A stretch of 64,000 nucleotides of DNA from Heptranchias perlo (Eukaryota): the NCBI RefSeq assembly GCF_035084215.1, contig NC_090337.1:50468001-50532000 (forward strand), in the 5' to 3' direction. Positions 14,801 through 61,789 of the stretch are shown here, piece by piece; within the stretch, counting starts at the first letter, position 1; each line of letters begins with the position of its first letter. A model generated the notes under the pieces. The model had not been told where the DNA came from and made no database searches. It saw only the letters and a list, made by a program, of their open reading frames with translations. The translations under genes and the position numbers were made by a program.

Positions 14801-14846
14801 TACTGTCATTGGGATCGTAGCGCTTTTCTTCGACAGGATCCGTCAT
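5853..14846 (-). CDS. RBR (RING1-IBR-RING2)-type E3 ligase-like protein, 4 exons, 289 aa, degenerate RING1
   Basis: GT-AG exons with matching phases: 14846-14765 (MTDPVEEKRYDPNDSTLKFVKGKDEIT), 14216-14119 (GDDEPDVLRVEMSCGHAVDPNSLTSWCRSLIDQ), 13998-13837 (GHFTFHCPAIKNKCNKEWSYVEVRR...YCEYKW), 6380-5853 (CPECKSCVERKDLTNLSVRCRIC...FCWQCLKEW = IBR; RACPTCGLLLEHKAMCKYVICARCHVEFCFAC = RING2/Rcat). Total 870 nt, open. Confidence 0.9.
6782..7959 (+). pseudogene. Harbinger (HARBI1-like) DDE transposase, disrupted
   Basis: Fragments with motifs RCLRFTKEAITEIC, DCTHI..NRKGFHSLNV, WLLGDKGYP, VEHTIGLLKQRFRCLD, CCMLHN and an acidic tail; premature stop at 6929-6931 and frameshifts at about 7125-7440. Confidence 0.85.
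8157..10046 (-). pseudogene. Harbinger Myb/SANT-like (NAIF1-like) DNA-binding protein, spliced, probably disrupted
   Basis: RERAPRFSDDALMALVEGV...WVQCRKKFNDLTRVVK followed by a gtgagt donor; downstream coiled-coil/low-complexity exons at 8157-9220. Confidence 0.75.
11095..11520 (-). mobile_element. CR1 LINE 3' end (reverse)
   Basis: catagaatttacagcacagaaacaggcc tail plus RT C-terminal remnants. Confidence 0.7.
11540..13700 (+). mobile_element. 5'-truncated CR1 LINE (degenerate ORF2 reverse transcriptase)
   Basis: ORFs 11964-12314 and 12351-13397 contain VPEDWRIANVTPLFKK, QHGFVKGKSC, GVPQGSVLGP, FAD and LEYCVQFW; 3' ctatgatactat tail. Confidence 0.92.
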
Positions 14847-21529: not shown

Positions 21530-21883
21530 TCAGCTGCTCCCTCCTTGTAGCACGATCAGGATGGTCGATTTGTTTGTAATCCCGTTATCAAACAGTTTAT
21601 CCGTATCCCTCAGTTGCCGATTAGCAAACAGCGCTCGCATCTTTTCTTCTCTGGCTGTTGAAAGAGTTGTAACATCATTTAATAAACTGAATAAAAGTAT
21701 TGAAACAACTTGCTCCCGATCTGAATGCGCGGATACATTACCCGCGTTCGCTGGTAACTTGGCTATCAGTTTCCTCTTAATTTGTAGCGCAGTCGTTGCG
21801 TTAAACTCGTATTCCGAGTTGGCGACTTCGACCGGGATTGTTTTTCCTTCGATCCCACGTACGAACACTTGATACATCGTCAT
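21530..21883 (-). CDS. Single-domain ubiquitin-like protein (Ubl-A), 88 aa, C-terminus ...STILIVLQGGSS
   Basis: Exon 21883-21742, 87-nt phase-1 intron (gtaatg...caacag, 21741-21655), exon 21654-21530. Protein MTMYQVFVRGIEGKTIPVEVANSEYEFNATTALQIKRKLIAKLPANAAREEKMRALFANRQLRDTDKLFDNGITNKSTILIVLQGGSS aligns to ubiquitin motifs (QIFVKTLTGKTITLEV; RLIFAGKQLED; GIQKESTLHLVL). Confidence 0.85.
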   Translation of the reverse strand: MTMYQVFVRGIEGKTIPVEVANSEYEFNATTALQIKRKLIAKLPANAGNVSAHSDREQVVSILLFSLLNDVTTLSTAREEKMRALFANRQLRDTDKLFDNGITNKSTILIVLQGGSS

Positions 21884-21966: not shown

Positions 21967-22031
21967 AGTTTCACTTTGACTCCAGGTCAAAGGAAGGGAA
22001 ACAGTTTCACTCTGGATGGTATTTTTCACTT
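21967..22031 (-). promoter_or_regulatory. ISRE/IRF-E cluster upstream of Ubl-A
   Basis: AGTTTCACTTTG at 21967-21978, AGTTTCACTC at 22003-22012, TTTTTCACTTC at about 22022-22032; 85-150 nt upstream of the ATG. Confidence 0.7.
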
Positions 22032-36700: not shown

Positions 36701-39700
36701 AGCTTTTTGGAACAAAAAATGGTGAATATCTGGCAGAGTGGAATAAGGATTGAGGGCAGGACTCAGGTTCTGCATCTTCCAAAACACACTATAATTTCCA
36801 GTGAAAGTGGATGTAGCAGGAAGATGTGCTCCACCCAAAGTGGTGGATGTATGCAAATAAAAGGATAATGTGGGCTTAATCTGATCCATCAGAAATTCCG
36901 TCATTTAAGCCAGTATTGCAGCTGACTTAACTCAAGCCCGTATAAAAGAGGAGTGAGTTACCTGCAAGATTTGCCAAACCAGAAAATGGTTGATTTCACA
37001 GGCTCTGATTGTCCACAAACTACGTCTAAGCTTTGTAGCCTTTTAGAACTGAGATGGAACCTCATATCAAGGCTTATGAGTTCCAGGATTCTTCCACAGT
37101 CTGCATCAGTACTTCAAGGACATGGGCAGCCTGGTCCTATCTCCTGCCAGTTACATGAGCAGGTATCTGAAGGGAGGGCTGACTGAAAGGTTCACATGAG
37201 CTCTCTTCAAGAATGAGGACAGCATCATGAGGGCAAACTCCTGCCTCACTTCTAGTGCTGGGTCCTGGATCTGCCTACTCACTGATCAGCACGATGGTAG
37301 ACATAAGAAATAGGAGCAGCAGTAGGTCATATGGCCCCCAAGACCCAGAAAGATCAGGAAAGATTGCTGCCGAAGTTCTTGGAAGCAGGTTGGCATCATT
37401 CCCTTGAGGCCTGAAGGACAGTGGTCAATGCCTCCATGTGACTGTCACTAAACAGTCTGGAGGCCTCTCAGTTGGGACACATGGATGCAGAAGTTCATGG
37501 AAGGTTAGGGAGGTTAGGGAGGAAATTGCGGGTCCCCTAGCAGAGATATTTGAATCATCGACAGCTACAGGTGAGGTGCCTGAAGATTGGAGGGTAGCAA
37601 ATGTTGTGCCTTTGTTTAAGAAGGGCGGCAGGGAAAAGCCTGGGAACTACAGACCGGTGAGCCTGACATCTGTAGTGGGTAAGTTGTTAGAGGGTATTCT
37701 GAGGGACAGGATCTACAGGCATTTGGAGAGGCAGGGACTGATTAGGAACAGTCAGCATGGTTTTGTGAGAGGAAAATCATGTCTCACGAATTTGATTGAG
37801 TTTTTTGAAGGGGTAACCAAGAAGATAGATGAGGGCTGTGCAGTAGACGTGGTCTACATGGACTTCAGCAAAGCCTTTGACAAGGTACCGCATGGTAGGT
37901 TGTTACATAAGGTTAAATCTCACGGGATCCAAGGTGAGGTAGCCAATTGGATACAAAATTGGCTTGACGACAGAAGACAGAGGGTGGTTGTAGAGGGTTG
38001 TTTTTCAAACTGGAGGCCTGTGTCCAGCGGTGTGCCTCAGGGATTGGTGCTGGGTCCGCTGTTATTTGTTATTTATATTAATGATTTGGATGAGAATTTA
38101 GGAGGCATGGTTAGTAAGTTTGCAGATGACACCAAGATTGGTGGCATTGTGGACAGTGAAGAAGGTTATCTAGGATTGCAGCGGGACCTTGATAAATTGG
38201 GCCAGTGGGCCGATGAATGGCAGATGGAGTTTAATTTAGATAAATGTGAGGTGATGCATTTTGGTAGATCGAATCGGGCCAGGACCTACTCCGTTAATGG
38301 TAGGGCGTTGGGGAGAGTTATAGAACAAAGAGATCTAGGAGTACAGGTTCATAGCTCCTTGAAAGTGGAGTCACAGGTGGATAGGGTGGTGAAGAAGGCA
38401 TTCGGCATGCTTGGTTTCATTGGTCAGAACATTGAATACAGGAGTTGGGATGTCTTGTTGAAGTTGTACAAGACATTAGTAAGGCCACACTTGGAATACT
38501 GTGTACGGTTCTGGTCACCCTATTATAGAAAGGATATTATTAAACTAGAAAGAGTGCAGAAAAGATTTACTAGGATGCTCCCAGGATTTGGTGGTTTGAC
38601 TTATAGGGAGAGGTTGGATAGACTGGGACTTTTTTCCCTGGAGAGTAGGAGGTTTCGGGGGGATCTTATAGAAGTCTATAAAATAATGAGGGGCATAGAT
38701 AAGGTAGATAGTCAAAATCTTTTCCCAAAGGTAGGGGAGTCTATAACGAGGGGACATAGATTTAAGGTGAGAGGGGAGAGATACAAAAGGGTCCAGAGGG
38801 GCAATTTTTTCACTCAAAGGGTGGTGAGTGTCTGGAACGAGCTGCCAGAGGCAGTAGTAGAGGTGGGTACAATTTTGTCTTTTAAAAAGCATTTGGACAG
38901 TTACATGGGTAAGATGGGTATAGAGGGATATGGGCCAAGTGCAGGCAATTGGGACTAGCTTAGTGGTATAAACTGGGCGACATGGACATGTTGGGCCGAA
39001 GGGCCTGTTTCCATGTTGTAACTTCTATGATTCTATAACTGCCACTCATTACAAGTAGTGCTGCAGCATTTCAAATCCATCTCAGATACTCGCAGAATGG
39101 ATGGTACCGGCCTCTACCACTAGACCTCCAACCTGTTTAAGGTCCTCTGAGATGATCCTCAGAACCCCCCCCAGAGATAAGATGTTCACCCAGTAACCGT
39201 CATTTTAGAGTAGGACACCTGAGATCTGAGTTTCGAGGCCCTCAAGTAGGGGTTGACTTCTGTGGCACCTCTGCTGCCCACTGTCAGACTCCACTGGTAC
39301 CTGGGCCTTCCCCTTGCACCCCATTGTTCTGTGGCTCACACAGTGACAAACCATCATTACAGATATATGGATTCTCCACTCCCCCCCACCCCCGCCCCCG
39401 CCACCCCAGCCCGGGTGGATTTCTCTGAACTGGTGAGTGAGGGTGAAAGGGTGAATGATATCATAAATGATTAGAGGTACTTAGGGCAGAGATGGAAGGG
39501 GACTGGCCACTTTCAATTTCTTCTTCTTCCTTTACCTTTTCCTCTGTAGCATCTTGCTGTGACTGATCTAAAGGGGAAAACAAAGGAAACTATATTAGAA
39601 GTGTAAGCTCTTTACTAGAAGTCTCATAGCTGCATTTGTCAGGTTTCTTGCATTAGTGCTCTGGTCCATAAGCCATGCTAATGGCAAGCTCCTGATGGGT

Positions 39701-42700
39701 CCAACATACCTTCAGCTGCCACAGTCCTTCTCAATTCACCATCTCCAACAGTGCTGTCTGTACACCCAGGATCTTCCTTCTGTAATGCCATGGGTCGAAA
39801 GCCAATTGGTCCTCTGCCTGTATCCTGAGACTGGTCATTATTATGGGTATCATTCTCCTGTGATGGAGGATGAAAAAGAGCAGAATGTTAGTTGTTTGAC
39901 AATAGAGCAGAGTTCGTGTGGCAGTGATCTCCTGCCCCAACCCCAAACAGCCGGTCCCTTATATCTTATAATCTCATTCAGCATATTATCTGCCCATTTG
40001 TAACTACATTTCCCATTTGAGGTCCAACAACCAGTATAAGCAGCCTAACGCCAGTTTCAGCTGGGCATCCTGAGCCAATATGGCGTCCGGCATAATTCTG
40101 GTCCAGATCAGACTGGACAGATTGCGACACGAAAATTTGGGGCCCTAACGCCCATTTTACAGGCGCAGATTGGGCGGCCATAAGTTGAATTTCACCCTCA
40201 ATTTTTCCATCTGTGGCCATTGGTGGCTCCTTTTCCCGTCACACCAACCACCACCTCCCACTTAAGAGGAAAGAAGAAAAATAAAGAGAAGCAGAAGAAG
40301 ACAGAGAGAAAAGCAAAAGGAAGAGTTAAGGCGAGAGAAGCAGAAGAGAAGAGAAAGAGATCTTTCACTAACATAGACATCCTTTCTTACGTTGGGACAT
40401 CAACTTTTGTGTCATTACTTTAAAATTAAATACTTGTAACAAATTCTGCAAATGAGATGAACACTAGACGGTTTACACTTGTAGGCCATTTTTGAGTACA
40501 AAAGATAAACCCCACCCCATCTGCCACCCAGCGAGCACGAATCCACGTTTATCGACTTCTGGTTCTATACCCTCTCCGTTGTGTATATATGTGAATCCTT
40601 AGAGCTTCACATTGAGATTTTGGGGCATTCTGGGGTGACTTGAAGAAAAGTTTCCCGGGCAACAAAACTCCAGATTTGCGAGACCTGCGGCTGACATATT
40701 GAAAGTTCACTAGATTGATTCCTGGGATGAGAGGGTTGTCCTATGTGGAGAGATTGAGTAGAACGGGCCTATATTCTCTGGAGTTTCGAAGAATAAGAGT
40801 TGATCTCATTGAAACATACAAACTTCTAAGAGGGCTTGACAGGGTAGATGTTGATTCGAGGTACTTAAGGCAGAGATGGAAAGGGACTAGCCACTTTCAA
40901 TTTCTTCTTCTTCCTTTACCTTTTCCTCTGTAGCATCTTGCTGTGACTGATCTAAAGGGGAAAACAAAGGAAACTATATTAGAAGTGTAAGCTCTTTACT
41001 AGAAGTCTCATAGCTGCATTTGTCAGGTTTCTTGCATTAGTGCTCTGGTCCATAAGCCATGCTAATGGCAAGCTCCTGATGGGTCCAACATACCTTCAGC
41101 TACCACAGTCCTTCTCAATTCACCATCTCCAACAGTGCTGTCTGTACACCCAGGATCTTCCTTCTGTAATGCCATGGGTCGAAAGCCAATTGGTCCTCTG
41201 CCTGTATCCTGCGACTGGTCATTATTATGGGTATCATTCTCCTGTGATGGAGGATGAAAAAGAGCAGAATGTTAGTTGTTTGACAATAGAGCAGAGTTCG
41301 TGTGGCAGTGATCTCCTGCCCCAACCCCAAACAGCCGGTCCCTTATATCTTATAATCTCATTCAGCATATTATCTGCCCATTTGTAACTACATTTCCCAT
41401 TTGAGGTCCAACAACCAGTATAAGCAGCCTAACGCCAGTTTCAGTTGGGCATCCTGAGCCAATATGGCGTCCGGCATAATTCTGGCCCAGATCAGACTGG
41501 ACAGATTGCGACATGAAAATTTGGGGCCCTAACGCCCATTTTACAGGCGCAGATTGGGCGGCCATAAGTTGAATTTCACCCTCAATTTTTCCATCTGTGG
41601 CCATTGGTGGCTCCTTTTCCCGTCACACCACCCACCACCTCCCACTTAAGAGGAAAGAAGAAAAATAAAGAGAAGCAGAAGAAGACAGAGAGAAAAGCAA
41701 AAGGAAGAGTTGAGAGAGAAGCAGAAGAGAAGAGAAAGAGATCTTTTACTAACATAGACATCCTTTCTTACATTGGGACATCAACTTTTGTGTCATTACT
41801 TTAAAATTAAATACTTGTAACACATTCTGCAAATGAGATGAACACTAGACGGTTTACACTTGTAGGCCATTTTTGAGTACAAAAGATAAACCCCACCCCA
41901 TCTGCCACCCAGCGAGCACGAATCCACGTTTATCGACTTCTGGTTCTATACCCTCTCCGTTGTGTATATATGTGAATCCTTAGAACTTCACATTGAGATT
42001 TTGGGGCATTCTGGGGTGACTTGAAGAAAAGTTTCCCGAGCAACAAAACTCCAGATTTGCGAGACCTGCGGCTGACATATTGAAAGTTCACTAGATTGAT
42101 TCCTGGGATGAGAGGGTTGTCCTGTGTGGAGAGATTGAGTAGAACGGGCCTATATTCTCTGGAGTTTAGAAGAATAAGAGTTGATCTCGTTGAAACATAC
42201 AAGCTTCTAAGAGGGCTTGACAGGGTAGATGTTGAGAGGATGCTTCCCCTGGCTGCAGAGTCCAGAACTAGGGGACATTGGGCTAGAAATTGGGCCGTCT
42301 AGCGCCCGTTGTTTTGGCGGGATGCGGCCTCTCGAAGTGCCACGATGGCGTCTTGGCTGCGCACACACGTTTCTAGCATGACGTGCACCGGATGCCATCT
42401 TGCGCAGAGAGGGAATGCCGGCAGTATGTAAAGTAAGGAGAAAATGGATACAATCTGTGTGCAACACTGATTTAAAGTGATAGACACCATTTTGGGACTT
42501 AACACTCCATTCAACCATGACCATCTCAACCACGACCATCTGAACATGTCATACAGTGCCTGGAGGACCCCCCACCAGCGCTACTTAAAGGAACCATGCA
42601 GGATTTACAGGTTAGTTGCTGGATTATTGCTACTGGCTGCTAATGCAGTTCCAACTGTTTTTGGAGGTCTCCTGGAGTTGAATACTAGGACAAGGGGATG

Positions 42701-45700
42701 TGGCCTAACTTTAGAGCCAGGAAGTGCAAGAGTGAAGTTAGGAAATGCTTCTACACGCAAAGAGTGGAAGAAGTTTGGAACGCTCTTCTGCAACTAGTAG
42801 TTGATGCTAGCTCAATTGTTAATTTTAAATCTGAGATTGATACATTTCTGTGAACCAAGGGTATTAAAGGATACAGAGCTAAGGCGGGTATAAGGAGTTA
42901 GGTCACAGGTCAACTATGATCTCACTGAATGGCGGAACAGGCTCCAGGGGCTAAATGCCACTGCCACTTTCTGCGTCCTGGTATGCGCCACTTTCTCCTG
43001 CAAAAAAGCAGGACGTGCGTCTTGGTGATGTGCCTGTCACGGTTGAATAGCTGCCAGTGTGTCTGGCCTGTGAGTTGTGGCTGGGCGGCTTGCAACAGTG
43101 GTCATGTGTAAGGGTGAGAGGAAGCATTTGATTGGAAGAGTTGAATACTGATGGAAAGTGTTTGTTGGTATGTGGGGGATGGAGGGTGTAGTGCGTGGAG
43201 GAGTGGATGCAGCTAGAAGTGCAGTCCGTAGGAGATACCACATGACAGTTGACCTCACTCAACTTGACCACTTGTGTCAAAGCATTCAACTTCTTCCTGC
43301 ACTGCATCCATGTTTGTGGTGCTATGCCTGGCATTGACTTCATCCCCCGCTGCCTCCCACTGCCTTTTGGGCATATCTCTGGAGGGCCTCTTGCCCCCAC
43401 TGTGGATATAGGATGTCCCTCCTTCTGTCCACCTCTTGCACCAAGGCCTCTAGTGTATCAGCAGAGAATTCTGGTGCACACACTCTCGCAGGCCTGGTAT
43501 AAACTCAGACTGGCAGATTGGTGAGGTCTGGCATGCAGATTGGAGGATGTGGGATTTAGTAGTGTGCAACCTTTATTCAATGTTTTAACATAACTCATCA
43601 GTTTGTAAACATAGGGACGGGACCTGCATCTGTGTTTTATGTGTGCAATGTCTGATCTCCGTTCAGACTACGTGCAGAAAGCAGACGGTTATTTTCAGCA
43701 AACAGGTACCGGCTACCTTTAAGAGATTTTAATAGTCATCCTCCCCATAGTCTCAGGATAAGGGGTCAGCCATTTAGGACTGAGATGAAGAGAAATTTCT
43801 TCACTCAGAGGGTTGTGAATATTTGAAATTCTGTACCCCAGAGGGCTGTGGATGCTCAGTTGTTGAGTATATTCCAGACCAAGAGCGATAGATTTTTGGA
43901 CTCTTAAGGGAATCAAGGTATATGGGGATCGGGTGGGAAAGTGAAGTTGAGGTCAAAGATCAGCCATGATCTTACTGAATGGCGGACCAGGCTCGAGGGG
44001 CTGTATGGCCTACTCCTGCTCCTATTTTTTATGTTCTTATGTCTTCCAAAAGTTGACTGTCAGCATGTATGAAACCGCCCTTTCTCAGCTGGCACTTCAT
44101 GCTTTCTTTATGGGCGGTGAGGTTTACCTGTACTCAATGCTCCAAGATTCTTTGATACATTCTACATTTCACAGCCACTGCTGCAAACTCCCCACACTCA
44201 TGCTTCAGATTCTAACCAATAGATGATCCTAGAAACTGCACTCAATAGATGACCAACCATCCTCTCTGCACTCTTTAGCGACTGTTGTTTTGCCATAATA
44301 TGAAAAGTAAGGAAGTCTCACATACGTTTGCAATTTCTTTACAAAGTCTCAAAGACAAGTTGTACTCTTTGAGGTAAGTGCATCTGATCAGAACAGCTGC
44401 TTTGTACGTTCAATTGCTGTATGCACTATAATTGTTGCATTGATGCAAAGCGGTTTTATTTCACACTGACACTGCAGTGATAATATAAATGAAACCCATG
44501 GGATTAAAGGAACATTGGCAGCCTAAGTACAAAGTTGGCAAAGGAAGATTAAAGGTGATTGGCAAAGGAACCAGAGGCGACACGAGGAAACATTTTTTTA
44601 CGCAGAGAGTTGTTATGATCTGGAACGCACTGCCTGAAAGGGTGGTGGATGCAGATTCAATAAGTATCAAAAGGGAATTGGATAAATACTTGAAGGGAAA
44701 AAATTTACAGGGCTATGGGGAAAGTGCTAGGGATTGGGACTAATTGGATAGATCTTTCAAAGAGCCGGCACCAGAACGATCTGCCGAATGGTCTCCTTCT
44801 CTGCTGTAACATACTATGATACTATAATACTAACCTGAATCCAGAATTAGGTTGGAACCTGACACCTGAACAAAGTGAACTGAGACTCCCTGAAGCATGA
44901 AGTCTCTCTTCTCTTCACTTTGGATTCAGTTTGGACCTTTACACCAACACAAAACTTGTGGAGTTCGAACGCACCCCTAATTAAATATCTAATAAGTTAA
45001 CTAATCAATAATAGACAACTAAAGTATTCACATTTGATGAAATAATTCAAAAATGATGCCCAAATAAATAGAAAACCTAGTATATTATGGGGCCAAATTC
45101 ACATGGCATTCCACCAAATTCCTGCTGTAACTCCAGCAGGAGTCAGGTAGAATGGTTTGGAGCCTCAGCCCGCCCCTTAGATGGGGGGGCAGTGCCAATG
45201 GTGGAGACTCCCTACACTAGGGGTTCCTGCTTCCCCGGCCCCTCAGAGACATAAGGTAACACTGGAGGTTGGTATACCCAGTCAGATGAGGCATAGCAGC
45301 CCCCAGAAGGGCACAAGTGAGTCCCACCAGGGAGTCCAGGCCAGGGAAGTGGACTGGACCCCCGAATATTAGGTAAAAGTTTTTATTTATAAAAAATCAA
45401 CACATCAATGCCATCTTCCCTGCTGAAGCATAGTAGGCAAAGGCAGATCTTTTCTTCCATTGCTCTTACTCATTCTGTAATTTTTGAACTGCTTCTTAGT
45501 TTGGTGTCATCTGCAGATTTGACTACACTGCCTTGAGCTTCTGAATTGACATAAATTAGAAATATTAGAGATCCCTGCACTGAGCCTGAGGTACTCACCT
45601 CTGATATAACTCCTCTGATGAGTATTTGTTGTTTCCCACCCTTCAGCCAATTTCTTATCCATTCCAACTGAGGCAGTGGAGAAAGGCAGGTTTGAAATGG

Positions 45701-48700
45701 AAACAGGAAAAGTGAAACAGAATCTTATTAGATTGCCTGAGGAAAAGAAAAAAGCAGGCCAACACCAAGAGTGCAGATGGCCCGAACCTCTTAAACAAAT
45801 GAGGAAAATCTGCCAAGAGAAGTAGAAAATAAAAACACTTTTATTATGTGATTAACTGCAAATGGGAGGTTTTGGAAAGGGAAGAATATGTTGATGGGGT
45901 TAGATGAAGAAGGGAGGGAGGAGGCTCGTGTGGAGCATAAACACCGGCATGGACCTGTTGGGCCGAATGGCCAGTTTCTGTGCTGTACATTCTATGTAAT
46001 TCTATCAACCCTCTTAAAAAGAGATTTTAGGTATCATCCAAGATGTGCCTGCCAGTCCCATGTTAATGAGATACCTTCCCAATGACCCACAAACTCTAGT
46101 AAGGTCAAGCGTTTGAGGGAAAACCAAAGTAACTGACAGGAATGCAGCCCAAGGATTTTTGGGCCCATATCATCAATGTGATTGCAGTTCTGATAAAGTT
46201 TCATCGACCTGAAACATTAACGCTGTTTCTTTCTCCACAGATGCTGCCTGACTTGCTGAATATTTCCAGCATTTTCTGTTTTTATTTCATCAATGTGATG
46301 ATTAATTACCATTATATTCACCACATAATTAACATCAGCAGTGAAAGCAAATGTGTGCAAGAAAAATATAATTTCATCAACCACGTTTTTGATATTAATT
46401 TACTAAAAACAAGGAAAGTCCAGCATGGAACGGTCAATATGTTCTGTAAAAGTTAACAGTACAGCATTGAAATCAGAGTAAATTAATTATTCAACACCAG
46501 ACACTCCACTAAATCTCTTAACTTTTGGTGCTATTGTAAAATGGGCAATTATCAGAGTGGATCGGCCGCATATTATACACCTCGCCTGATTTTCCTTTTC
46601 ATTGACTTCTTACCTTGTCCATTGTGGGTTTTAGACACCATTCATTGCAGTTGTCCTGTACAAAAATTAAATTAAAAATTGCAATGAAGTATAAAATTTG
46701 TGAGATCAGATGTATGGTATGTAATTTTGAATAAATACATTTCTGTGCATTTCGGAATAAGAAATAATCATGACGTAACAATACATTGCAGATTTAGTAG
46801 GAGATGCCGTCACCATGCTCAATGTACTAGAGCATGAACTCGGACGCACTTCACAATCAAGCTGCCAAATGCTAAGAAATACATGCAGTTATTCAAATTA
46901 CTTAGTGTGGTAGTCTCATATACTTGCTAGCACCATAGACCACAAGCGCAGAACAAAACATGCAACAGGGCACAAAACCTGACTTCTGGAAGCTACATAA
47001 ACCATTGCTGACATAGGTCTGCTCACAAGGGCCATATATACCACTGTCATGGTCCAGTCATGGTGAAGGTACCATGTACCAACAAGTAAGCTAAATAGCC
47101 AGTGAAAACTAATTAGCCTGTAAGTTTTATCTTCTTGAGGTGATACTGAATCTTGTGTGTGGGTAATATATTTCATCCAAGAATAAGCTAAAATCCCAAA
47201 TGTTGCATAAAGTAGCAAGATAGGATAAGAGCTGCAACTGGATAAGAGCTAATGGTTTAAGTGAAGACATGTGGAAAAATTAAAAGAATGCATTGAAAAT
47301 TTACTATAAGGCAGCCATTGTTAGGAGCCATTACATGCTTTCAAGTTCCATCTGCTCCTGACTTAATCACAAGTGTACATAATGACAATGACAATTTTCT
47401 GGAACACACAGCGAATTCATCTCCAGCAAAATGAATACTCTACACTATTCTCCATTAAAATATTAGCATTAATAATAATGGCAAGTATCTTACCTGGGAT
47501 TTGTGAAACTCCAACGCAAGTGGAATAGTAATGCACTCATTAAATTTCTGATAATACATCCAGAAGTCAACAGCTTCAAATCGTTTTAGTTGGAATGTGA
47601 GAATTTGAGGCAACTGTTTAAAATAGTATCTCTGCAAAATGTAAGGTCAAGTTAGTGCAACAAATCTTAAAAGGAATCTTGTTAATGAAAGATAGAGATA
47701 AATGTTATGTTTGTATTTCATTCATAATTAGGATGAAGATATGCAGAAATAAATATCTATAATACATTTAAAATATTACAACTACATGCACCTCCTGTTA
47801 AATTTTTACATTATAAATTCCTATGTCCACATTTATAATGAAAACTGCCCATGTAAACTTGTCACGCTGTAATTACAGCCTTTCACCAGTGAAGGTGCTG
47901 ACATCCAGTATTTCTAAGGGCCTCAAGGAGGTGATTTCACCTTGAAAAAATCAGACTTTGCATCCATTCAGCTGCCTCTGCTGCTTCTCCCCTTCCTTTA
48001 ACAGCCAACGACTTATGGAATTATATAAACTATCTTGGTGACAGAGTGGCAAACTTACTGTTTCTGTTTTAGTCTTTGTGCTACAATGGTCACAATAAGG
48101 CTCGTTGTCGCCTTCCATAGTATCCTCCTTCAAGAACTCTTGAAGAGCTGTTTCCTTTAAAAAGAAAGTAACAGGTTAAAATCAGAATATTGCAGCACGT
48201 CGAAGGCCTTGCACTAGTAGATAGTTATTTACAATGAGTTCAATACATGTCATACAGTTATTAAATCACACAGCGACTCCGATTTAGCCACATGCACTAA
48301 TTTTAGTAGAAAACACCTTATACACAATACAGGTAAATGTACTTCACATGGGTGTATTTACTTAACAAACATCTACCACCATTCAGTGACCAAGGAAGTA
48401 AACCAACCACAATGATCAAAAAAACACTCACACACTCTGCTTTTGATTTTACCAACAAATGCACAAAAAGGTTAAAGTTCACATACATACGTGAATGAGT
48501 ATTGAAATCACATGACCAACAATTGTGTCTGTTATTCATTGTTTATTTACTAATCAGGCATGCAATTAGCCACATCTGGATTGCCAACATCTCACACAGT
48601 TGTTAAATCACGGCACACAATGCATTATGGGACGTTGTGCTAGTTCCTCGTGTTCCATTGTCAAATCACCATGATGTAAATCTTAGAGGAGTTATGTAGT

Positions 48701-51700
48701 CAGAGCTGCTTAAGATTTGCTGGCTCTACACTGAAGGTTGGTGATGCATTTATGCCACTGTGAGCAGTACAGCAGTGTGAAAATCCTGGTCTGACAAGGA
48801 TAAGTGGAAATTCTATCTGGCTCTATTTCATTTGCTTTATCAAAGACATCACGCTGTTTAGTTAGGAAGAAACTAAATGGCAGATTCAAACCAGTTAGAT
48901 ACATTTTTCCTAAGTACTATTAAACACCTTTCTATAGATATCTGATTGCATACAAGTGAGGAAGATTAGAATTTAGACAAAAGAATATATACTCTGATTA
49001 ATTTTCAGGTTAAAGTCATCTAGGGCAGAATGCAAAAATATCAAAGGGTAAAAATAGCAGCTTACAGACAGAAGCAGTAACTTTGGACCAGAATTGAAAG
49101 TGAGTGGTGCATCAAAGGTCCAGGGGTTAAAAATATATGCGGGTATAAGCAAGAAGAGCACGTAAGATGGCATATTTGGAACTTAAAAAGAACAAGAAAG
49201 TTCAGAGCAGCACTGACCATAGTAGTATCGATAAAATTCAGAGAGACAAGAAAGGTTGTGACTGAGAAAAAGAGGTTAGTGCTTAGGAGACAGAGATGGA
49301 TCACCTATCAAACAACAAACTTTTTCTTCTTTACTGTCTAGAGCGGCAAGGGATGCGTTAGAAGAGCTTTCCATATATGGAAGCAGTATTCAAGAAGTCA
49401 AGAGTGGAAAAGTGTTTGGAACAAGAGCAAACTGAGCTTCTTGGAGACAACTTTAGCAATGGAGATGTGTATGTTCCATTTGAGATCAGAAGAAATGAGG
49501 AAGCCAGGAATATCAATAGAATGAAGGGCTAACTGCATTCAATTTAGTTTAAACATTTTGCTCTCCAAGTTAGCAAAAATGCAGTTGCTCAGTTCTCAAT
49601 TAAAACATAATGTAAGTGCCTGCAAGTCTTGGATAATAAAAGATAAATATTGCAATGTCCGAGACTGTTTCAAATGTGAATTACTTTGGATTAATTTTGT
49701 GATGTAGTGGATATCTAAAGTGTCACTGGTACTGGACTCCACAAACAGAATCAATGTAAAAAAGGGATGTTTGCCACATTGCTGTAAAGTAATTTAATAA
49801 TCTGAATACAAAATATGGGTTTAACTCGTTTGCTTTATAATGTTTTAATCTTACCAGATGTCTAATCTTTGCTGAAGAGTAAGCTAAACGAATGGGTAGA
49901 GGTACATCCAGAAAGAAACAGTCATCCTCAAAAAGATTTGCGCACACTGAGCACTTCATGGATAGAACCATTATGATCTGATAAAACTAAAAGACATAGC
50001 ACAATGAGCACTGAGCCCATGATCTGTCATTCAGAATTTAACAGAATACTGAAAAAAAAAACTGATATTTTGAATCCCATCTCAAAAAATACTGATGCTT
50101 CATTGTTGCCATTGACAAATCTTCAAGCCTTTTTTTTAGGTGTACAATATACTTTGGAGGGTGGGTGGGGGGGGAAGAGGATAAATACCGTGGGGGAAAA
50201 AATCCTCGACCATTCCAGTTCACTCTCTCCCGTAACTTTGGAAGGAGTGCGACAGAAGGGCTGGAAATCCCCAGCCATTGCTGGCACTTCTTGCACACCC
50301 TTGCAAGGCCAGTGACGTGAAGGGGCAGGGACAGGAGCACTGACTCCCTATGTCGAGAAGCCCTGTGACATCAGCATCGCAGAAGGTCAGTACATCTTGG
50401 GAAGCTGGTACGTCCAGTGAGAAGAGGCATACCAGTCTCTTCCCTGGTGGAAGTGTGGCCTACCTGGATTTCCAGGCCTAGATCATTGCCTGGTCCCATG
50501 AAGGGGTCAGAAATGCTATAAGATTCTTCTGGCGTCCTTATAAAAGGAGCTGATGGGATAAATGCGTGTATCTTTCAAGGGGCAGTGGGGGGAGTCCCTT
50601 CACCCCCGCCGGGCCTGGAACTGGCATATTCCACTGACTTTTCAGCCTATTGGGGCAGGCAGGTGCCCAAGATCTGCCCCTAGAGGCGTGGGTATTTGTC
50701 ATGGCCATTCAAGTCAGGAGCCCTCCCTTTGATCCACATACTCTGTTAGGGCCAGAGGTCACTAGCAGGCACACTACTGGCATAACAGCTGGGATTGTAC
50801 CCTGCGGATTTTAAGGGTGCTGGATTTTTTTTTTAATTTTAAGATTGACAGTTTTGACAATTCACAGAACGTGACACAGCTTCCTGTTTGTAAGCTACAA
50901 CTTCCTGTTTGTAAACCACAACCCTGTCTACTGATGGAAAAAGTCTGAGAGCACTGTAGACAGTGTTTAGAATCCAGGGAAACATCTATTAGAACAGCTC
51001 AATATTTTAAAAATAGCTATAAAAATGTTTATAGAAAAACAGCAACAAAGTAAAGCACCACTATCTGAGGTCATTTTGATAGCAAAATCAATGTAACTTA
51101 ATATAAGGGTCTGTGAACTTCAATTGAAAATAATTTGACAGATCTCAGTTAATGTGTCATTAACTGCTGCATTTGTATTTCAATTTATTATGCAAGAGAA
51201 AAGGAGTGCTAATCACAGTGCTGGGAAATGAACTAATGCCTTAAGGAAGGGGCTTACCTTTCATCAGGCACACAATAAAAATGATCACGGCTGTAGTGAC
51301 GACACAATATCACTGAAATTCTTAAAGATAAGTTGTCAGTGTTTGCTTTACCCTCCCAATCCCCCACGGACTGTGTCTCAGTGCCAGGATACTCAGTGGT
51401 GTATGGGTGGAGGGTGCATCCTGAGGAAGATAGAAGCCCTAGGCCCGTGGTGTGACCATGACTTTTAGAATCGAGTTGATTCAAGGAGAGGAGAGAAGCC
51501 ACTCCCTGGAAACACAATGCGTGAAGAGTTCCGGTCAATGAAAGCCAAGTTGGCTGCAGAGGCAGTGACACCGTACGGTCAAACTAATACGTGAACTGTG
51601 ACACTGTACAACAGGTAAAAAGTCAATCAAATATCACTGTGTATAATATGAACACAGTACAATAAATTATAATACAAATATAGCACATTAAATAACTATT

Positions 51701-54700
51701 CAAAGTAAATGATGCTAACTATATATAATTTATTATTTCATCTATATGCCCCCATTCCTTCTGAATCCCTTTCCCTTCCATTACCAGATTTGGCTCCTGC
51801 TCCATCTCAATCTCAGCCCCTTGCTCCCTCCCAATCTCCAGTTTCTTTCACTCATATATGTTACAACATGTCCTGGGTGGTTTCTCTAAATCTGGCCCAG
51901 TACCCACTTTTGATCCAATGCACACTGGTTGTCATCTTGCCCTGGGCTTTTAAAAAGATATAAAATGATAATTGAATAAAGCAGTAATGAGGTACGTGTT
52001 AGAGATATAAAGAGAGAGAGAGTGGGTGATATACTGAACAAAGCAAACAGATGAAAGGACTTACAGAATGAGGGAGAGAGAAAGGATGTGGAAAAGGAGT
52101 TGGAGACACATGGGAAGGTGTAGAAAAAAGGGGAAAAAGGAAAACAGAAAAACTAAGAGTCAGACAAGCAGAGATCCAGTTACAAGAAGAGAGATGCAAT
52201 TTTTAAAAAATTGTCGGTGGGCACTACCTCAGATTAACCTTACCTCGACAATGTTATGCTCCTGATCCACTTCAGTCTTCAGTTTGCTTATCAGATTGCG
52301 GAAACATTCTTCTATATCACACTGTTTTGAAACTTGAAAAGAAAAATTGTAAAAAATAATGTTTAAATGAACATATACCTCTATACAGTACATTAAAAAC
52401 CTTAGCCTGGATTTCCCGATACGTGCTGGCATCAGTGGAAGGGCAGCAGACATGCACTTCTGCCCGACCGTTAACTCTGCTGTTAATCCTGGCAGGCTTC
52501 CTAGGGTACTGCACAGTTAAGCTAGTTTATGTACTCGTCCTTGAATGGGCTGGAACCAACAAACTTTGATCCAGAGGTGATTGCACTAGCACTGAACTAA
52601 GCCGATTGCTTATTCATCTACTATGTGAAGACTAAGGCTTGTGTCATATCCAGTAAGCTAAATACAAAACAAAGGTTTCTGTTCAGCCCCAAGACAATGC
52701 TACAATACCAAATATTGTGTGTTTGAGGTGTGTACTTTTGTTCATAGAGGGAGAGCATGATAGAAATATCTGATGAAAGCCAAAAAGGTATTGCCATCAT
52801 CACCATGGCACACAAGCTCAACCATACAGCTCTCTCCATACAGCAGCTCCCTCTCTTTTCATCTGTTTCAATTGCACTCAATATATTCTATTTTCCGCTT
52901 TCCTTTTTTCAGAGAGAGAGAGAGATTCAAAAGCCTATGAACAGATTCTCTGGCATTCCCTCACATTTGCTTGCCTTTTTGTTCCTCTGTGTCCTTATAA
53001 GGACGATGTACTGGAAGCTGTTGCAAAACCATTACTTTTCCTTGTGCTGGTGTGCACCAGGATTTTAGGAAATGGTAGCAATCCAGGTCTTCCCTCTTGA
53101 AAATTAAAAGAAAAAAAGGATTCCAAAACCTCGAAACGTTGCGATAACATCAGGGATGCAGCCACGACACACCGAGATAAAATATTATTGGACTAAATGC
53201 CCTTAGCGCTGCAGAAATAAAGTAGGACTTTGCCACTCTCTCCCTTCTGGCATACACCATGGATTCACAGCTTGGTCATTGCAATTTTTTGAATACATTC
53301 TCAGGCTTTCACTACAAGAAATGTCTTAGGAAACTTAGTGTTGGCTTCCCCTACCGAGTCTTCAATGTTGGCTTCACTTAATGGACCAACTTAATCGCAG
53401 AAAAGTGACAAATGGACCAGGCAGCAGAATACTAAGAATTGGAGAAACATTTTTTTTGATCAATGGTTAGGTAGATAGATACATAGACACTAAATGGATA
53501 GATTTGTCCAATGCTTACCATTCAGTCCCAAGCTTGTGGTCAACTCATTTGTCTCCAAAGATTTTACCTCTCTGCTTTCTAATTTGTTGAACAGACTTTT
53601 CAATTTGTGTATAAAATCCACATCTGTTTCTAAGCTAGAAAAAATATGGAATTTTAACATTTAAGAAAACCAATTCTGTTTGCAATTTAGGAACAGAATA
53701 ATCTTGAAATTTCCAATGGAGTAATCCTAAATCCTTTAGGGTCTCTGAATGGTTGACAAATATCTTTTAAATGCAAATAAGCATTTGGGCACATACACAA
53801 AGGGGGTGAAATTCCTTCTGTCGATAATTTCAGCGAAAAAGTCATGAGAGTAGAAAATGGGAAATCCTACTTTGTATTCAAACTGACTTTTTTTTGGAGG
53901 AATTTCACCTCCAAACATGCTTGTTCAAAAAAATCACACTAACACTCTATGCCATGGGACGGTAACATACAAAGGTTCCGTCCATGCAACTTACAATACA
54001 GTGAGCTTCCAGTCCTAGCTAACTGGGGATAACTCATATGCTGTTATATAAGCAGGAACTTCACATTTTTTAGCAGAACAAATACACTGGCTAATGCTTT
54101 GGCTGGTATTCCACTTTACATAATGGATTATTTCTGCATTTTATGGATATTTCTATCTCTTTGCTGAAGTTTGAAAATTTCATTCCATTTTCCAGCCCCT
54201 TGCATCCATAATACGAAAAACAGAATTTGTTTTGGATATTATTTGCACTTTTCAAAGTGAACAATGTAATTGCTGGAGAACACTAATTTTGCCTGCCCCA
54301 ATATTACTGCTCATTAACTGCAACTAATTAGATGCACAGTATAGTTTCTAGACCCAACCCAATAATGTACTTTAATTTCAGAAACACCCATCCAACATTT
54401 TTATTTTCCTTATTTCCTACATCAGCCATTCTGAGTTTGATTAGCCAACCAGTACTGAATTACAGACTGTTCTGTGTTTTAGACTTGTCGCCCTCCCCAC
54501 ATTGACTGAGCACTGGATGGGTGCAGTGTGCCCAAAATGCACTACATCTCTCCAATCTTCAGTTACCCTTGAATCATCACAAGTAGTAGTTTCTAGCCTC
54601 TTGTGTTCTGACTGCATTATACACTTTGTTCTCAATTTCCAAGCAATAGTTCACCAAACTTTCCAGTTCAAGATTTTTCTAAATCTGGATCTTTACATTT

Positions 54701-56174
54701 ACAGAACCCATAAACGGTCTTACCAATGACCAATAGTGCTCTTTTAGCAGTCCGAAGTAATTCTAATGCCTACCTGGCAATGTAATGTTTAACTTCTGGG
54801 GTCATGAACCATGTTTGAAGCAACGTGTTCAGATAACAAGTGGCTCCTTGATTGATCAATCCAACAAAAGCTATGCATATAATAAAAAATGGACATTAAA
54901 GGAAAAGTTGATTAGAATCAAAACAGTAGCTGTTCTGCTGAGAGTCTTTCTTTACAACAACCTACATTTATATAATGCTCCTCACATGTAGGGAGGCATA
55001 TCAGAGTGCTTCACAATAAGGAGGAAAAAGATACAGTAGACAAGAGAGAGAGGGAACTGTGCAGAGCGTAGTGGCTGAATGAATGCTTAGCTGAATGAAT
55101 GAATGAATGAATGCCGGTCGCTTGTCGTTTTAATTCCCCCTCCCACTCCTACTCTGACCTCTCTGTCCTCGGCCTCTTACACTGTTCCAATGAAGCTCAA
55201 CGTAAGCTCGAGGAACAGCACCTCATCTTTCGCTTAGGTACTTTACAACCTTCCGGACTCAACATTGATTTCAATAACTTCAGATCATAACCACTCTTTT
55301 GTTTCTTAACCTGTCCCATTACCAGCCTCTTTGCCTTGCACCATCATCCCTTTTGTCATTTAATCACTTGTGACCTCTACCCTATCCCATTTTGTTCTTT
55401 CCTTCCCTCCCCTCCCTCCCCCCTTTCCCTGGCTCTGTACTTGTTTAAAAACTGTTAACTCTTTAACATCTTCCAGTTCTGATGAAAGGTCATCGACCTG
55501 AAACATCAACTCTGTTTCTTTCTCCACAGATGCCGCCTGACTTGCTGAGCTTCTCCAGCACTTTTTGTTTTTGTTTCAGATTTCCAGCATCGGCAGTATT
55601 TTGCTTTTGAGGTTACATAGCCCCTTGGCTGAAAAGCCTGGGGAATCTAGATGCATGTGGAGTATCCAGATTTAGTGCGGACATTGTGGACGGTGCCAGT
55701 TAGTATGCTGAAGATGTCAACTTGGGTGGAGGTCCACTTTCTGCCTGCATAGTACGCTGGAGGATGAATTTACAATTCTACAGTTCCACTGTTTCCCTTT
55801 TGGTGTGAAAGATCATCGATCTGAAATGGATAACTGTTTCTCTCTCTCTCCACAGATGCTGCCTGACCTGCTGAGTGTTTCCAACATTTTCTGTTTTTAT
55901 TTCAGCATTTGAACCTACTGCTTTTGTTGCCTTACCTGGTCTTTTTGAAATGAATCCACCAAACCCACTGAAAATGCTTTTCGTTGTACCTGTAAAAAAT
56001 CACCGAAAGAGTTGTAATAGCGGGGGCAGACTCTCGTACTGTTGTTTACAAAGCGATCATCAATCCCTGAATCGGCAGCTCAGTATTAAAGTATTGTCTT
56101 CATATTAATACACCTATGATTAAGTGAGAGTCGGGCTGCTTACCTGTACTTCTCCTGTTGATATGTGGCCACAT
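30717..56174 (-). CDS. Ubiquitin/Ubl-specific peptidase (peptidase C19), USP18-like catalytic-domain-only protein; about 368 aa core, about 434 aa with optional micro-exons
   Basis: Phase-consistent GT-AG exons: 56174-56144, 55989-55936, 54870-54774 (Cys box [23 protein letters not shown]), 53634-53519, 52332-52244 (QCDIEECF), 49986-49855 ([12 protein letters not shown]), 48154-48059 (YCDHC), 47631-47494 ([12 protein letters not shown]), 46655-46614, 34255-34130 (His box [20 protein letters not shown]...WYYFND), 32267-32245, 31886-31831 (TAYLIMYRR), 30823-30717 (stop; less certain). Lower-confidence in-frame exons: 44865-44835, 41798-41772 or 40417-40391, 40951-40920 or 39567-39536, 36635-36528. 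Confidence 0.85.
30919..31232 (+). mobile_element. LINE (CR1/L2-group) 3' end with A-rich tail
   Basis: [25 protein letters not shown]-type ORF end; tail shared with 1155-1290 and 59135-59335. Confidence 0.7.
34130..34255 (-). CDS. USP exon with the catalytic His and Asn/Asp boxes
   Basis: 126-nt exon reading [42 protein letters not shown], flanked by tttag| and |gtaact. Confidence 0.9.
34822..35270 (-). mobile_element. Deu-type tRNA SINE (near full-length)
   Basis: (gaaa)n tail, shared core, tRNA-like head gggacttgaa..actcagagg..tgctac. Confidence 0.7.
37500..39036 (+). mobile_element. 5'-truncated CR1 LINE with uninterrupted RT ORF (young copy)
   Basis: ORF 37438-38958 is open through all RT motifs ([18 protein letters not shown]) to the natural stop; 3' cttctatgattctat. 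Confidence 0.95.
39474..42234. repeat. Tandem duplication of about 1.38 kb (39474-40854 and 40858-42234)
   Basis: Both copies begin gaggtactt..gcagagatgg and end gggtagatgttga; nearly identical, as the paired ORFs 39656/41040 and 39978/41362 also show. Confidence 0.95.
42280..43745 (-). mobile_element. Degenerate Harbinger remnant nested in a CR1 3' fragment (42085-42279 and 43747-44040)
   Basis: Starts GGGCTAGAAATT; Myb/SANT remnant [16 protein letters not shown]; homologous to 6490-6700 and 9530-10020; CR1 text resumes after it. Confidence 0.65.
44530..44825 (+). mobile_element. CR1 LINE 3' end
   Basis: [17 protein letters not shown] motif; actatgatactat tail. Confidence 0.75.
45420..45670 (-). 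mobile_element. CR1 RT fragment
   Basis: WIRNWL...QGS...ADDTKL remnants. Confidence 0.55.
54774..54870 (-). CDS. USP exon with the catalytic Cys box
   Basis: 97-nt exon reading [31 protein letters not shown], flanked by tag| and |gtagg. Confidence 0.9.
55115..55610 (+). mobile_element. Penelope-like element 3' fragment
   Basis: [23 protein letters not shown] (GIY-YIG C-terminus) followed by the ctgatgaaagg...gatgc.gcctga tail. Confidence 0.7.
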
Positions 56175-56430: not shown

Positions 56431-56516
56431 ACTTTCCGTTTCAATTTCCCTATTTGCATTGTGACTTTGTTTGCAACGGTGCAGACGAGAAATAAGGGAG
56501 TTTAGTTTCAGTTTAC
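56431..56516 (-). promoter_or_regulatory. ISRE/IRF elements upstream of the USP gene
   Basis: ACTTTCCGTTTCAATTTCCC at 56431-56450 (GGGAAATTGAAACGGAAAGT on -, three GAAA units at 6-bp spacing) and AGTTTCAGTTTAC at 56504-56516; locally CpG-richer DNA 250-340 nt upstream of the ATG. Confidence 0.75.
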
Positions 56517-58946: not shown

Positions 58947-59134
58947 CATGAGTTTCCTGCCCAACGAATTTGGTTCAAATTACTCTCCATCTACGATTTT
59001 GCCACCAGACTACGGGAAACGGATTTAGCAGCGAAAAGCAAAATACTGCAGATGCCGGAAATCTGAAACAAAAACAAAAAAACGCTGGAAACACTCAGCA
59101 GGTTCGGCAGCACCTGTGAAAGGAACAAAGCTCT

Positions 59135-59335: not shown

Positions 59336-60011
59336 GTGGAATCTCCACCAGTAAGATAAACTCACAGCTGCAAGGGTGGAAAACCTGGCAGTGATACATT
59401 GAGACCTGAGGGGAATTAAAAGGGGTGGAAAAGAGGTCAAGAGGAATACTTTTCTCAAGCCATGATTAGTTAGTAGCTGGGGCCTATATGAAGGCAGAAG
59501 AGCCCAATATTCGGCCTTCTCCCTCCATCCAGTGACTTAGGGGGCTTACTGCCAGTACCGCAGGGACCATCACCACCATTCTCCAGGCTGTCTTCGGGGT
59601 GGTAGTCAGTAAGCAGGGAAATATGATGGTTTGGCGACCCTCACCTCTCCAAGAGATGAGCAGGGAAGGAGGAGGAGGAAAATTGAAATTGGCAAGGAAT
59701 GCAACAGTAGGCTTCCTAACTGATTTTCCCACTTTTTCCACCACTACCCCACCTGACCTTGGGTGAGATAATGGTTGAAAATCCAACCTGATATCTCTGA
59801 ACTCTGGAGATTAAAGATTTCTTTTTTAAAGTAAGGAGTATATGAATCTACTGCTTGAAATTATAATCTCATAATTTATGAGAGAATTGCTCGTGCTCTG
59901 TGATCTATCATTTTGATGAGCATAAAAACACTGAAATATGGCAGTAGAAGGAATGAAAGAGCAGCCTTTGATTTTAAGGTTTGGCTGTAAACAAGAAAAG
60001 TGAGTAAAAAT

Positions 60012-60035
60012 GAAACTGAAAGTCTTATATAAATA
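60012..60035 (+). promoter_or_regulatory. ISRE plus TATA box of Ubl-B
   Basis: GAAACTGAAAGT at 60012-60023 followed closely by TATATAAA at 60026-60033, about 85 nt upstream of the ATG at 60116. Confidence 0.8.
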
Positions 60036-60115
60036 CTCTGACCGTGCTCTCAGCTCATAAGTGAGCTCCAAATTTCACAGCAAGTCATACAACAGTCAGT
60101 CTGAGGAAATTTGGA

Positions 60116-61069
60116 ATGGGCAGCCAATTCCAGGTCTTTGTAATAGGCATTAAAAATGAACGGATTTTAGTGGATGTCGGAAAAACAGAGGAAGAAATGA
60201 ACCGATTGGTTGTTTCAGAGTTTAGGAAGTTGCTGTTACTAAAATACCCTGGCAACATTGGTAAGTAGCAGTTAATTGTTTTTTTTTTGAAAGACATAAG
60301 TTAACCTAGAGTTGGGTACATAAAAGAAAGTGGCCCATTACCAGTGTGATGTGATGAACTGGATGTCCCTCTTCCTGGTGGGGAAGCAGTGGGGCTCTCT
60401 AACCTATGACTTGATCTGCATCATGATTAATCAGAACTGCACATCTAAAGCCTCGCCTCCCTACTAGCATTTGGATACAACAGGCGGGGGAGGGGTGGCT
60501 AATGGCAGCTCCTGCAGGGACAGGGGGAGAAAAATCCTGATCAGGGCAGGTAGGCAGCAGACGGTATAATGGCGTCATTTTCCAACATTTCCAACCAATC
60601 CCACCTGAGGTGGGACAGGATAATGTAGGGAAATCCAGCTTGAAGTCTTCTACAATGAAATATAACAGGTTCTGATCTTCCAATTTACAAATACGCTTTC
60701 TTGTATCGGTTTAGTTTTAAAAGTTGATTTTACATGAATAAATGTAGGTGATGGGTGAAGATTTGCACAAGATATCTGTGGGCCATATCTGCCATTTTCC
60801 ACATTTAAAATGATCACCATTGTGGATTATCTGTGTTTATCATTATCATTGAAGCCAATCATAAAAGGCCATATTTTATATTGACTGTGCAATTTAAAAA
60901 ATGTTTATTATTTACTTAATTTGCAGTAAATGATGCACGCCTGCTTTTTGCTGACATTGAACTGGAAGACAAAGAAACATTCGGGAAATACCAGATTAAG
61001 AACAGATCTACCATCCTGGTGGTGCTACAGCTGGACGGTGGGGCTGCACAGTTGCACTTTTTCAACTAA
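60116..61069 (+). CDS. Single-domain ubiquitin-like protein (Ubl-B), 95 aa precursor, ...VVLQLDGG-AAQLHFFN
   Basis: Absent from the ORF track. Exon 60116-60260 (|gtaagt) plus exon 60927-61069 (ttgcag|), with a phase-1 intron at the same position as in Ubl-A. Protein MGSQFQVFVIGIKNERILVDVGKTEEEMNRLVVSEFRKLLLLKYPGNIVNDARLLFADIELEDKETFGKYQIKNRSTILVVLQLDGGAAQLHFFN. Confidence 0.88.
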
Positions 61070-61696
61070 CTAGCCCTGTTGGAGATTTTCCTTGGAACAA
61101 TTTCTCCGATGCAACTCTAAAATTAAATGTCAACAAAAAATCCAAGGGCTAGGAATTATTGAAGGAATGGCATCAAATGTATTTATTCTTTGTTTAAATC
61201 CAGAGAAATTGTTACATGTTATTAAACTCTCATGCTTAGCATACTACAGCTTACTGGTTAGTTCGAATTGCTGGAAAATTCTTTTACTTTTCTTTACGCT
61301 GCCATTTTATTTACATTACAATTCAAAATACTGGATAATTTCATTTTTTTCATGGAAAATGACTTTGAATTAACAGGAGTCGGTTGTATTCTAAAGATGT
61401 TGGCTTGTAGCCACATCGATGTACATGACACTTAAGACAGCTTTTTAGGAAGAGGGGATGGAGTATCTCCTTGTCCTTTACTCTCATTCCTTGTACAATT
61501 CTATGTGCTGCCTCAAGTATTCACCTTTCCTAGAACCTTAAGGGTCTCTTTGCCCCATCCCTTGATCTGCCTGATTAATTATAACTGCCCATCTAGGGTC
61601 TGTTTTGTAGAAGTTTTGTGTAACTGTCCTGTCTTGTTATGCATATGTTGTGTTACCTCTGCATTATTTTTCTTGAAACCGTAAAATGAAAAAACA

Positions 61697-61707
61697 AATA
61701 AAATAAA
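61697..61707 (+). promoter_or_regulatory. Probable polyadenylation signal(s) of Ubl-B
   Basis: Overlapping AATAAAATAAA about 630 nt after the stop, following an AU-rich UTR with ATTTA motifs. Confidence 0.5.
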
Positions 61708-61789
61708 TGTGCATTGATGTCAATTGATTGAAGTGATTTTTCTGTTATAAACAAACAAATTCATCTAAGGACGAATTGAAAAACTTTTC

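Follow-up and report, generated by a model that had tools for sequence, protein, structure and literature searches.

The ISG15 system (UBA7, UBE2L6, HERC5/ARIH1 and USP18) combines a ubiquitin-like (Ubl) precursor carrying a di-Gly motif with an ISRE-like promoter, USP18-related proteases and an RBR ligase. Grimholt et al. 2025 named a previously undescribed RBR clade, ARIT, together with a 'USP18-like' clade, and treated both as possible ISG15 enzymes (PMC12234341). In salmon cells, virus and IFN-gamma induce both, and UBA7 is the sole E1 induced; on salmon chromosome 7, ARIT.1, ARIT.2 and USP18-like lie within ~250 kb (PMC12234341). ARIT is also reported from reptiles and monkeys, and as lost in hominoids (PMC12234341). 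The available part of that paper names no Ubl of the kind described here and does not remark on the linkage.

We analysed a window of 64,000 nucleotides from Heptranchias perlo (contig NC_090337.1, positions 50,468,001 to 50,532,000) and read 200 kb on either side of it. A ~280-kb array (window-relative -132 kb to +147 kb) holds four Ubl genes, RBR ligases and USPs. One of the four, Ubl-B, shares with ISG15 the four features listed above, and human ISG15 also has an 8-residue extension. Ubl-B differs in having one domain, not two, and the tail LQLDGG (LRLPGG in its family), not LRLRGG; here, moreover, the genes for tag, E3 and protease are clustered. ISG15-like genes form an array of their own in the shark, on C28 (33.93-34.05 Mb), with at least nine two-domain LRLRGG genes, which show 30-35% identity and fall outside the zgc:194655 clade to which Ubl-B belongs. 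A separate USP18-like best match is found on C21. The C28 genes are of two types, one ending at the di-Gly and the other with a 12-residue extension, and more than one ISG15-like lineage may be present there.

Ubl-B is ISG15-like by anatomy, yet it is not ISG15, FAT10, NEDD8 or SUMO. FAT10 has two domains and a CYCIGG-type tail whose Tyr is read hydrophobically; Ubl-B has one domain and LQLDGG. SUMO shares Gln72 with Ubl-B but not the rest of the tail, and neither NEDD8 nor SUMO is the closest match. The zgc:194655 family is uncharacterised and spans chimaera to lungfish. It goes unmentioned in the available parts of a zebrafish ISG preprint (10.1101/693333, whose supplementary tables may list it) and of a 2026 review (PMC13030082). 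A literature search, with most subscription journals outside its coverage, turned up no paper on family, tail or locus. The locus is likely an ISG15-like pathway, undescribed in the literature searched. The main interest lies in the locus; the Ubl-B tail alone is a modest finding.

The Ubl-B gene and its promoter

The gene is laid out as follows (positions are those of the window).

60005..60023, plus strand: tandem ISRE/IRF-like motif upstream of Ubl-B, with matches at -109 to -103 from the ATG
60026..60035, plus strand: TATA-like box of Ubl-B, from a motif scan
60116..60260, plus strand: exon 1, 48 codons + 1 nt, ATG at 60116, from the gene model and contigs
60261..60926, plus strand: intron of 666 nt, GT..AG, phase 1, skipped by the contig joints
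60927..61069, plus strand: exon 2, coding part with stop (TAA 61067-61069), from contigs and PF00240 over its cut-off
61025..61042, plus strand: tail LQLDGG, ubiquitin positions 71-76, from the codon map
61043..61066, plus strand: 8-residue C-terminal extension, a predicted pro-peptide, from the codon map
61070..61712, plus strand: 3' UTR, AATAAA at 61697, contig ends at 61711-61712 in two runs

The open reading frame comprises two exons and 95 codons and encodes a single domain. Exon 2 alone passes PF00240 (Pfam ubiquitin) with 26 bits against a cut-off of 25.4; Rad60-SLD stays below its Pfam cut-off. The tail codons start at 61025 (L), 61028 (Q), 61031 (L), 61034 (D), 61037 (G) and 61040 (G), which places the di-Gly at ubiquitin positions 75-76, as in conjugated (type I) ubiquitin-like modifiers. 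Position 60259 is joined to 60926 in contigs of all four runs, two from organism A (the same sample as the genome) and two from organism B (a related species), and in a further contig comparison the joint was present in three of four organism-B runs. The intron has no contig cover save for one low-depth contig that enters its 5′ end in one run. Jointly the contigs of the four runs cover 60060-61712; they begin at 60060-60069, ~30 bp 3′ of the TATA-like box, and cannot fix the start site. Our reading of expression relies on the skipping of the intron, as the contigs are RNA-like by a tool's guess and no run is recorded as RNA. The coordinates, the Pfam match and the 666-nt joints thus bear out the two-exon gene with LQLDGG and eight further residues that had been proposed from the DNA, and Ubl-B is confirmed as a genuine shark gene that is spliced and encodes a small ubiquitin-like protein. 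Two protein database searches did not return the Ubl-B protein, which fits an unannotated gene. When longer proteins were sought in a database with exon 2, none of six candidates passed, which is weak evidence.

The ISRE/IRF-like promoter motif lies 88-109 bp 5′ of the ATG in all four Ubl genes. The same pattern occurs in 1.3% (same strand) or 1.8% (either strand) of random 170-bp windows (n = 20,000); it had been loosened from a stricter first version that matched three of the four Ubl promoters, which are paralogous and hence not independent samples. The stricter pattern also matched upstream of USP1, USP3, USP4 and RBR2. It would be through this motif that interferon induces Ubl-B. We rejected the idea that Ubl-B and USP4 are driven from one bidirectional promoter: their ISRE-like motifs are separate and 3.6 kb apart, with repeat sequence between.

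The array around Ubl-B

Within the window the other genes of interest lie on the opposite strand.

5853..14846, minus strand: RBR E3 ligase of ARIT type, four exons seen, from IBR Pfam families and ARIT motifs
21530..21883, minus strand: Ubl-A, two exons with an 87-nt intron, tail VLQGG + SS, two residues shorter
21967..21977, minus strand: ISRE-like motif upstream of Ubl-A, from a motif scan
31826..56174, minus strand: USP4 (a local label), head-to-head USP of the USP47-like/USP18-like class, 3′ end not mapped
Parts of USP4, minus strand: predicted ATG 56174; Cys box exon 54870-54774; QxDxxE exon 52332-52244; His box exon 34255-34130; later exon from 31886
56431..56442, minus strand: ISRE-like motif upstream of USP4, from a motif scan

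Ubl-A, B, C and D each have two coding exons, a phase-1 intron at the equivalent place and an extension after the di-Gly. Their tails are VLQGG + 2 (A), LQLDGG + 8 (B), LRLPGG + 2 (C) and FRLRGG + 20 (D) residues. Ubl-D, at C13:50373678-50374254, combines a ubiquitin-like tail with its 20-residue extension and is absent from the database matches. Four USPs carry both Cys and His boxes (USP1, USP3, USP4 and USP5), and USP2 is a partial gene of three exons. Seven exons of USP4 join in frame to give 264 codons without a stop, with both boxes intact. Its Cys exon is closest to USP47/USP7, and its exon borders are common to USP5, which in turn matches the USP18-like gene on C21. USP47 and USP18 are treated as ohnologues (PMC5381560). 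The start codons of Ubl-B and USP4 lie head to head, ~3.9 kb apart. The same arrangement recurs for Ubl-C with USP5, and is seen for neither Ubl-A nor Ubl-D. In USP5 (C13:50590674-50614656), a USP18-like paralogue, the His box has CFRD instead of the FND of most USPs, a change that may alter activity. An identification of USP5 as the true USP18 was dropped, as by eye the C21 gene matches the salmon USP18 His box better.

Three full RBR genes and one lone RBR exon were found. The array RBRs consist of the bare RBR module with ARIT motifs and have no transmembrane tail, as judged by eye against alignment SF1.12 of the PMC12234341 supplement. Shark and salmon therefore have the linkage of ARIT and USP18-like genes in common, given the salmon chromosome 7 arrangement. 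Outside Heptranchias perlo there is a hint of Ubl and ARIT adjacency in the name of an Atlas cluster of 92-aa chordate Ubls, alone, which was automatically called after the ARI8 ligase.

Further features of the region are the following. The last RBR1 exon (4462-6440) is duplicated upstream (-103243 to -101255) at 93% DNA identity, without the other exons. A tandem duplication of ~1.4 kb with 98% identity sits in a USP4 intron (39468-42235). Upstream, the cluster abuts a satellite of 29-bp units (C13:50268001-50321000) that extends over at least 53 kb, with ~1830 copies. Sequences at 6400-10300 and 56900-59000 resemble Harbinger-type DNA transposons, one copy lying between USP4 and Ubl-B. Downstream (+176 to +247 kb) we find what we take to be ephexin-type RhoGEF-like and EFHD-like genes, possible synteny markers.

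The zgc:194655 family and the Ubl-B tail

A profile of the paralogue exons matched 54 proteins among 3365 candidates, in a search that depends on shared words. We kept 44 as full-length, dropping five ubiquitins, four partial records and one duplicate coelacanth model. Their hosts are chimaera, sharks, rays, bowfin, sturgeon, teleosts, coelacanth and lungfish; in this shared-word-dependent search no tetrapod member was among the 54 matches. A profile search of 1.84 billion representatives gave mostly polyubiquitins among its best 150, with three single-domain family members. Databases label the family zgc:194655, polyubiquitin-like, NEDD8-like, L40-like or uncharacterized.

In a tree of 89 columns that also includes two ubiquitins and two ISG15-like domains, the 44 proteins, Ubl-B and Ubl-D form one clade (support 100/99), apart from ubiquitin and ISG15-like sequences; the inner forks are mostly unresolved. 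Ubl-B has the longest end branch (0.94), and its placement within the clade is likewise unresolved. Its identity is 34% with ubiquitin, 47% with Ubl-C and no more than 54% with any other member. Clade membership, the ~47-54% identity to its nearest relatives, the two-exon plan and the di-Gly with extension tie Ubl-B to the family; Gln72/Asp74 in place of Arg72/Pro74 and the long branch set it apart. Orthology to a lungfish protein with Gln72 and a similar N-terminus was considered and is unsupported, as the two are not placed together, in a part of the tree that lacks resolution. PF00240 on exon 2 of Ubl-B and a model of its paralogue Ubl-C (pLDDT 79.5; TM 0.76-0.78 to ubiquitin among the top matches) indicate the beta-grasp ubiquitin fold. 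The best 60 of 280 PDB sequence matches were all ubiquitin or its variants.

The di-Gly is followed by an extension of 1-44 residues in all 46 members of the clade. The pro-peptide of Ubl-B, singled out in the original prediction, is therefore ordinary. The di-Gly itself is kept in all 46 and in the organism-B orthologue; its absence from orthologues would have refuted the original prediction. The consensus tail is LRLPGG. With the two short-tailed Ubl-A sequences set aside, position 72 holds Arg in 38 of 44 members, Lys in 2, Gln in 2, Pro in 1 and Met in 1; at position 74, 37 of 44 have Pro, 3 His, 2 Arg and 1 Leu, and Ubl-B alone has Asp. From the usual, although not universal, Arg72/Pro74 Ubl-B thus departs at both positions, and no xQLDGG protein occurs among the 54 matches; xQLDGG is not a family tail. 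The description of the tail as charge-reversed holds for residue 74 (Arg to Asp relative to ubiquitin, Pro to Asp relative to its own family), but residue 72 is merely neutralised (Arg to Gln). On this alignment Arg74 is lost family-wide, and only Gln72 and Asp74 are special.

Organism B retains LQLDGG, with the codons of Gln72 and both glycines identical and those of Leu73 and Asp74 changed silently. Conservation of the motif in an orthologue, the check proposed at the outset, is thus found, weakly: at the intron divergence of 27/322, each of the Gln72 and Asp74 codons has a ~79% chance of keeping its residue by chance. The extension is of equal length with two residues changed. The main transcript of organism B differs at ten positions in exon 1 and at seven in coding exon 2, one of which is read from a loose contig end. 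This makes 17 differences over 285 coding nt, compared with 27 over 322 nt of intron. The dN/dS of 0.49-0.66 does not fall significantly below 1 (Fisher p 0.22; two species). We note that two organism-B runs contain a second Ubl-B-like copy or allele (60127-61066), which starts MGK like the family consensus.

Judged from these comparisons, Ubl-B evolves fast. A redundant copy drifting towards loss, whose tail has no adaptive meaning, would account for the rate, the long branch and the lack of xQLDGG among the 54 matches, and the array does contain partial duplicates in USP2 and the lone RBR exon. Such drift sits poorly with a coding part free of stops and indels between two species when the 3′ UTR has many (35-38 gap letters), with replacements that are mostly conservative, and with ~50% protein divergence from the paralogues while frame, splice sites and promoter motif stay intact. 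We regard it as improbable.

Predicted activation and processing, and possible roles

Residue 72, held from the outset to be a determinant of E1 selectivity, is a published E1 filter: Arg42, 72 and 74 touch the UBA1 crossover loop, and the Tyr of FAT10 occupies the same pocket of UBA6, a non-Arg residue 72 being accepted (PMC12355090). In UBA7 an acid adjacent to the equivalent of residue 74 is important (PMC10409785). UBA1 takes ubiquitin tails X-X-R-X-X-G-G (PMC6136576), and therefore the family R-x-P-G-G tail may fit ordinary E1s. Arg72 is reported indispensable for UBA1 peptide recognition (PMC6136576), and so Ubl-B may not be charged at all.

The genome E1s found are UBA6, a single UBA7-like gene and UBA1, which also has an unplaced copy that looks identical. 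No further ubiquitin-type E1 or UBA7 paralogue was found in two genome family searches, which scored 14 and 42 candidates and give lower bounds. The crossover loops of UBA1, UBA7-like and UBA6 read QDPPEK, RDPPDR and RDPPEEE; in each enzyme an acid stands six residues ahead of the catalytic Cys. The UBA6 loop, with three acids, is the most acidic. The UBA7-like gene (C20:10353620-10551841) spans ~200 kb and has a UBA1-like crossover loop; we infer its identity from exon similarity.

Among proteases, USP28 binds Arg72 through Glu258 and contacts Arg74 through Gln254; in USPL1, which is adapted to SUMO, Phe takes the place of that Glu (PMC8983731). The published enzymes USP2 and USP21 also read Arg72 (PMC5442100). 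When the USP28 contacts are placed by spacing on the QxDxxE box, which reads QQDLEE in USP1, QQDIEE in USP3, QCDIEE in USP4 and QLDAEE in USP5, USP4 retains the Arg72-binding Glu and presents Cys to residue 74, versus Gln in USP1 and USP3 and Leu in USP5. At this contact, the one site compared, USP4 has no basic residue that would compensate for Asp74. The published contacts in E1s and USPs support the expectation that Gln72/Asp74 would fit UBA1 and ordinary USPs poorly.

From that expectation a permissive or dedicated E1 and a dedicated protease, the head-to-head USP, had been drawn. In its full form this would be a channel with USP4-specific processing, a permissive or special E1 and a pathway orthogonal to ubiquitin and the paralogues. 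UBA6 does provide a precedent in accepting a non-Arg residue 72 in FAT10, but its loop is the most acidic where residue 74 passes, and no extra E1 emerged from the lower-bound searches. SUMO-USPL1 is likewise a precedent for an adapted USP; USPL1, however, replaced the Arg72-binding Glu by Phe, and USP4 keeps it. The Cys that USP4 alone has at the position contacting Arg74 in USP28 could speak for specialisation, although it is not a base. Head-to-head pairing occurs twice, but Ubl-A and Ubl-D lack it, and the ISRE-like sites of Ubl-B and USP4 are their own. LQLDGG is kept in organism B, at the ~79% expected by chance for each codon. USP4, named as the obvious candidate, is one of four array USPs with Cys and His boxes. 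We consider a dedicated channel quite unlikely, and the E1 and protease proposals gained no support.

Allosteric binding of ubiquitin and Ubls to RBR ligases is established, as are roles of free ISG15. An uncharged Ubl-B, whether precursor or free mature form, could be an inhibitor, decoy or allosteric ligand that binds ARIT, one of the cluster USPs or a deconjugase of a pathogen. It has lost both tail arginines, the loops of all three E1s are acidic, and Ubl-B is still expressed with its reading frame and ISRE-like motif intact. Against such a non-conjugated regulator, both species retain the di-Gly and an extension of eight residues; we think it unlikely, if a little less so than the two alternatives above.

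Our preferred reading, to which we give about an even chance, is that Ubl-B is a weak-fitting variant tag in a shared, ISG15-like, interferon-induced pathway of its cluster. Ubl-B, transcribed and spliced as the contigs indicate, would be induced by interferon through the ISRE-like motif, and a USP18-related protease of the cluster, with USP4 not singled out, would remove the extension. An ordinary UBA7-like E1 or UBA1 would then activate Ubl-B, likely slowly because Gln72 loses a salt bridge and Asp74 faces acid. Linkage and the co-induction in salmon suggest that it would pass via an E2 to the neighbouring ARIT RBR ligases and then to targets. LQLDGG would be derived from the family LRLPGG and would likely tune or dampen conjugation or removal, with no private pathway. 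On this reading Ubl-B would be a poorer substrate than those paralogues that have Arg72. More speculatively, and with greater doubt than belief, the locus could represent a third immune Ubl pathway of jawed vertebrates beside ISG15 and FAT10: an operon-like, interferon-driven locus for tag, RBR ligase and protease, split in this shark into four tags whose tails differ, among which the Ubl-B tail would escape Arg-reading deconjugases of host or virus.

New conjugated ubiquitin-like modifiers are seldom found in vertebrates, and this family is mislabelled in databases as polyubiquitin, NEDD8 or L40. If the shared pathway is real, the orphan ARIT ligases and USP18-like proteases gain a candidate cognate tag. 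Since ARIT is reported from monkeys but as lost in hominoids, the pathway could represent an immune module now missing from humans. Zebrafish or salmon cells would allow an immediate test of the family, and the four natural tails in one genome are a ready series for the reading of residues 72 and 74 by E1s and USPs. In this series the short Ubl-A tail VLQGG corresponds to VLRGG in the Pristiophorus orthologue, so that the deletion is common to two genera; it may shift the di-Gly beyond the ordinary E1 and USP sites.
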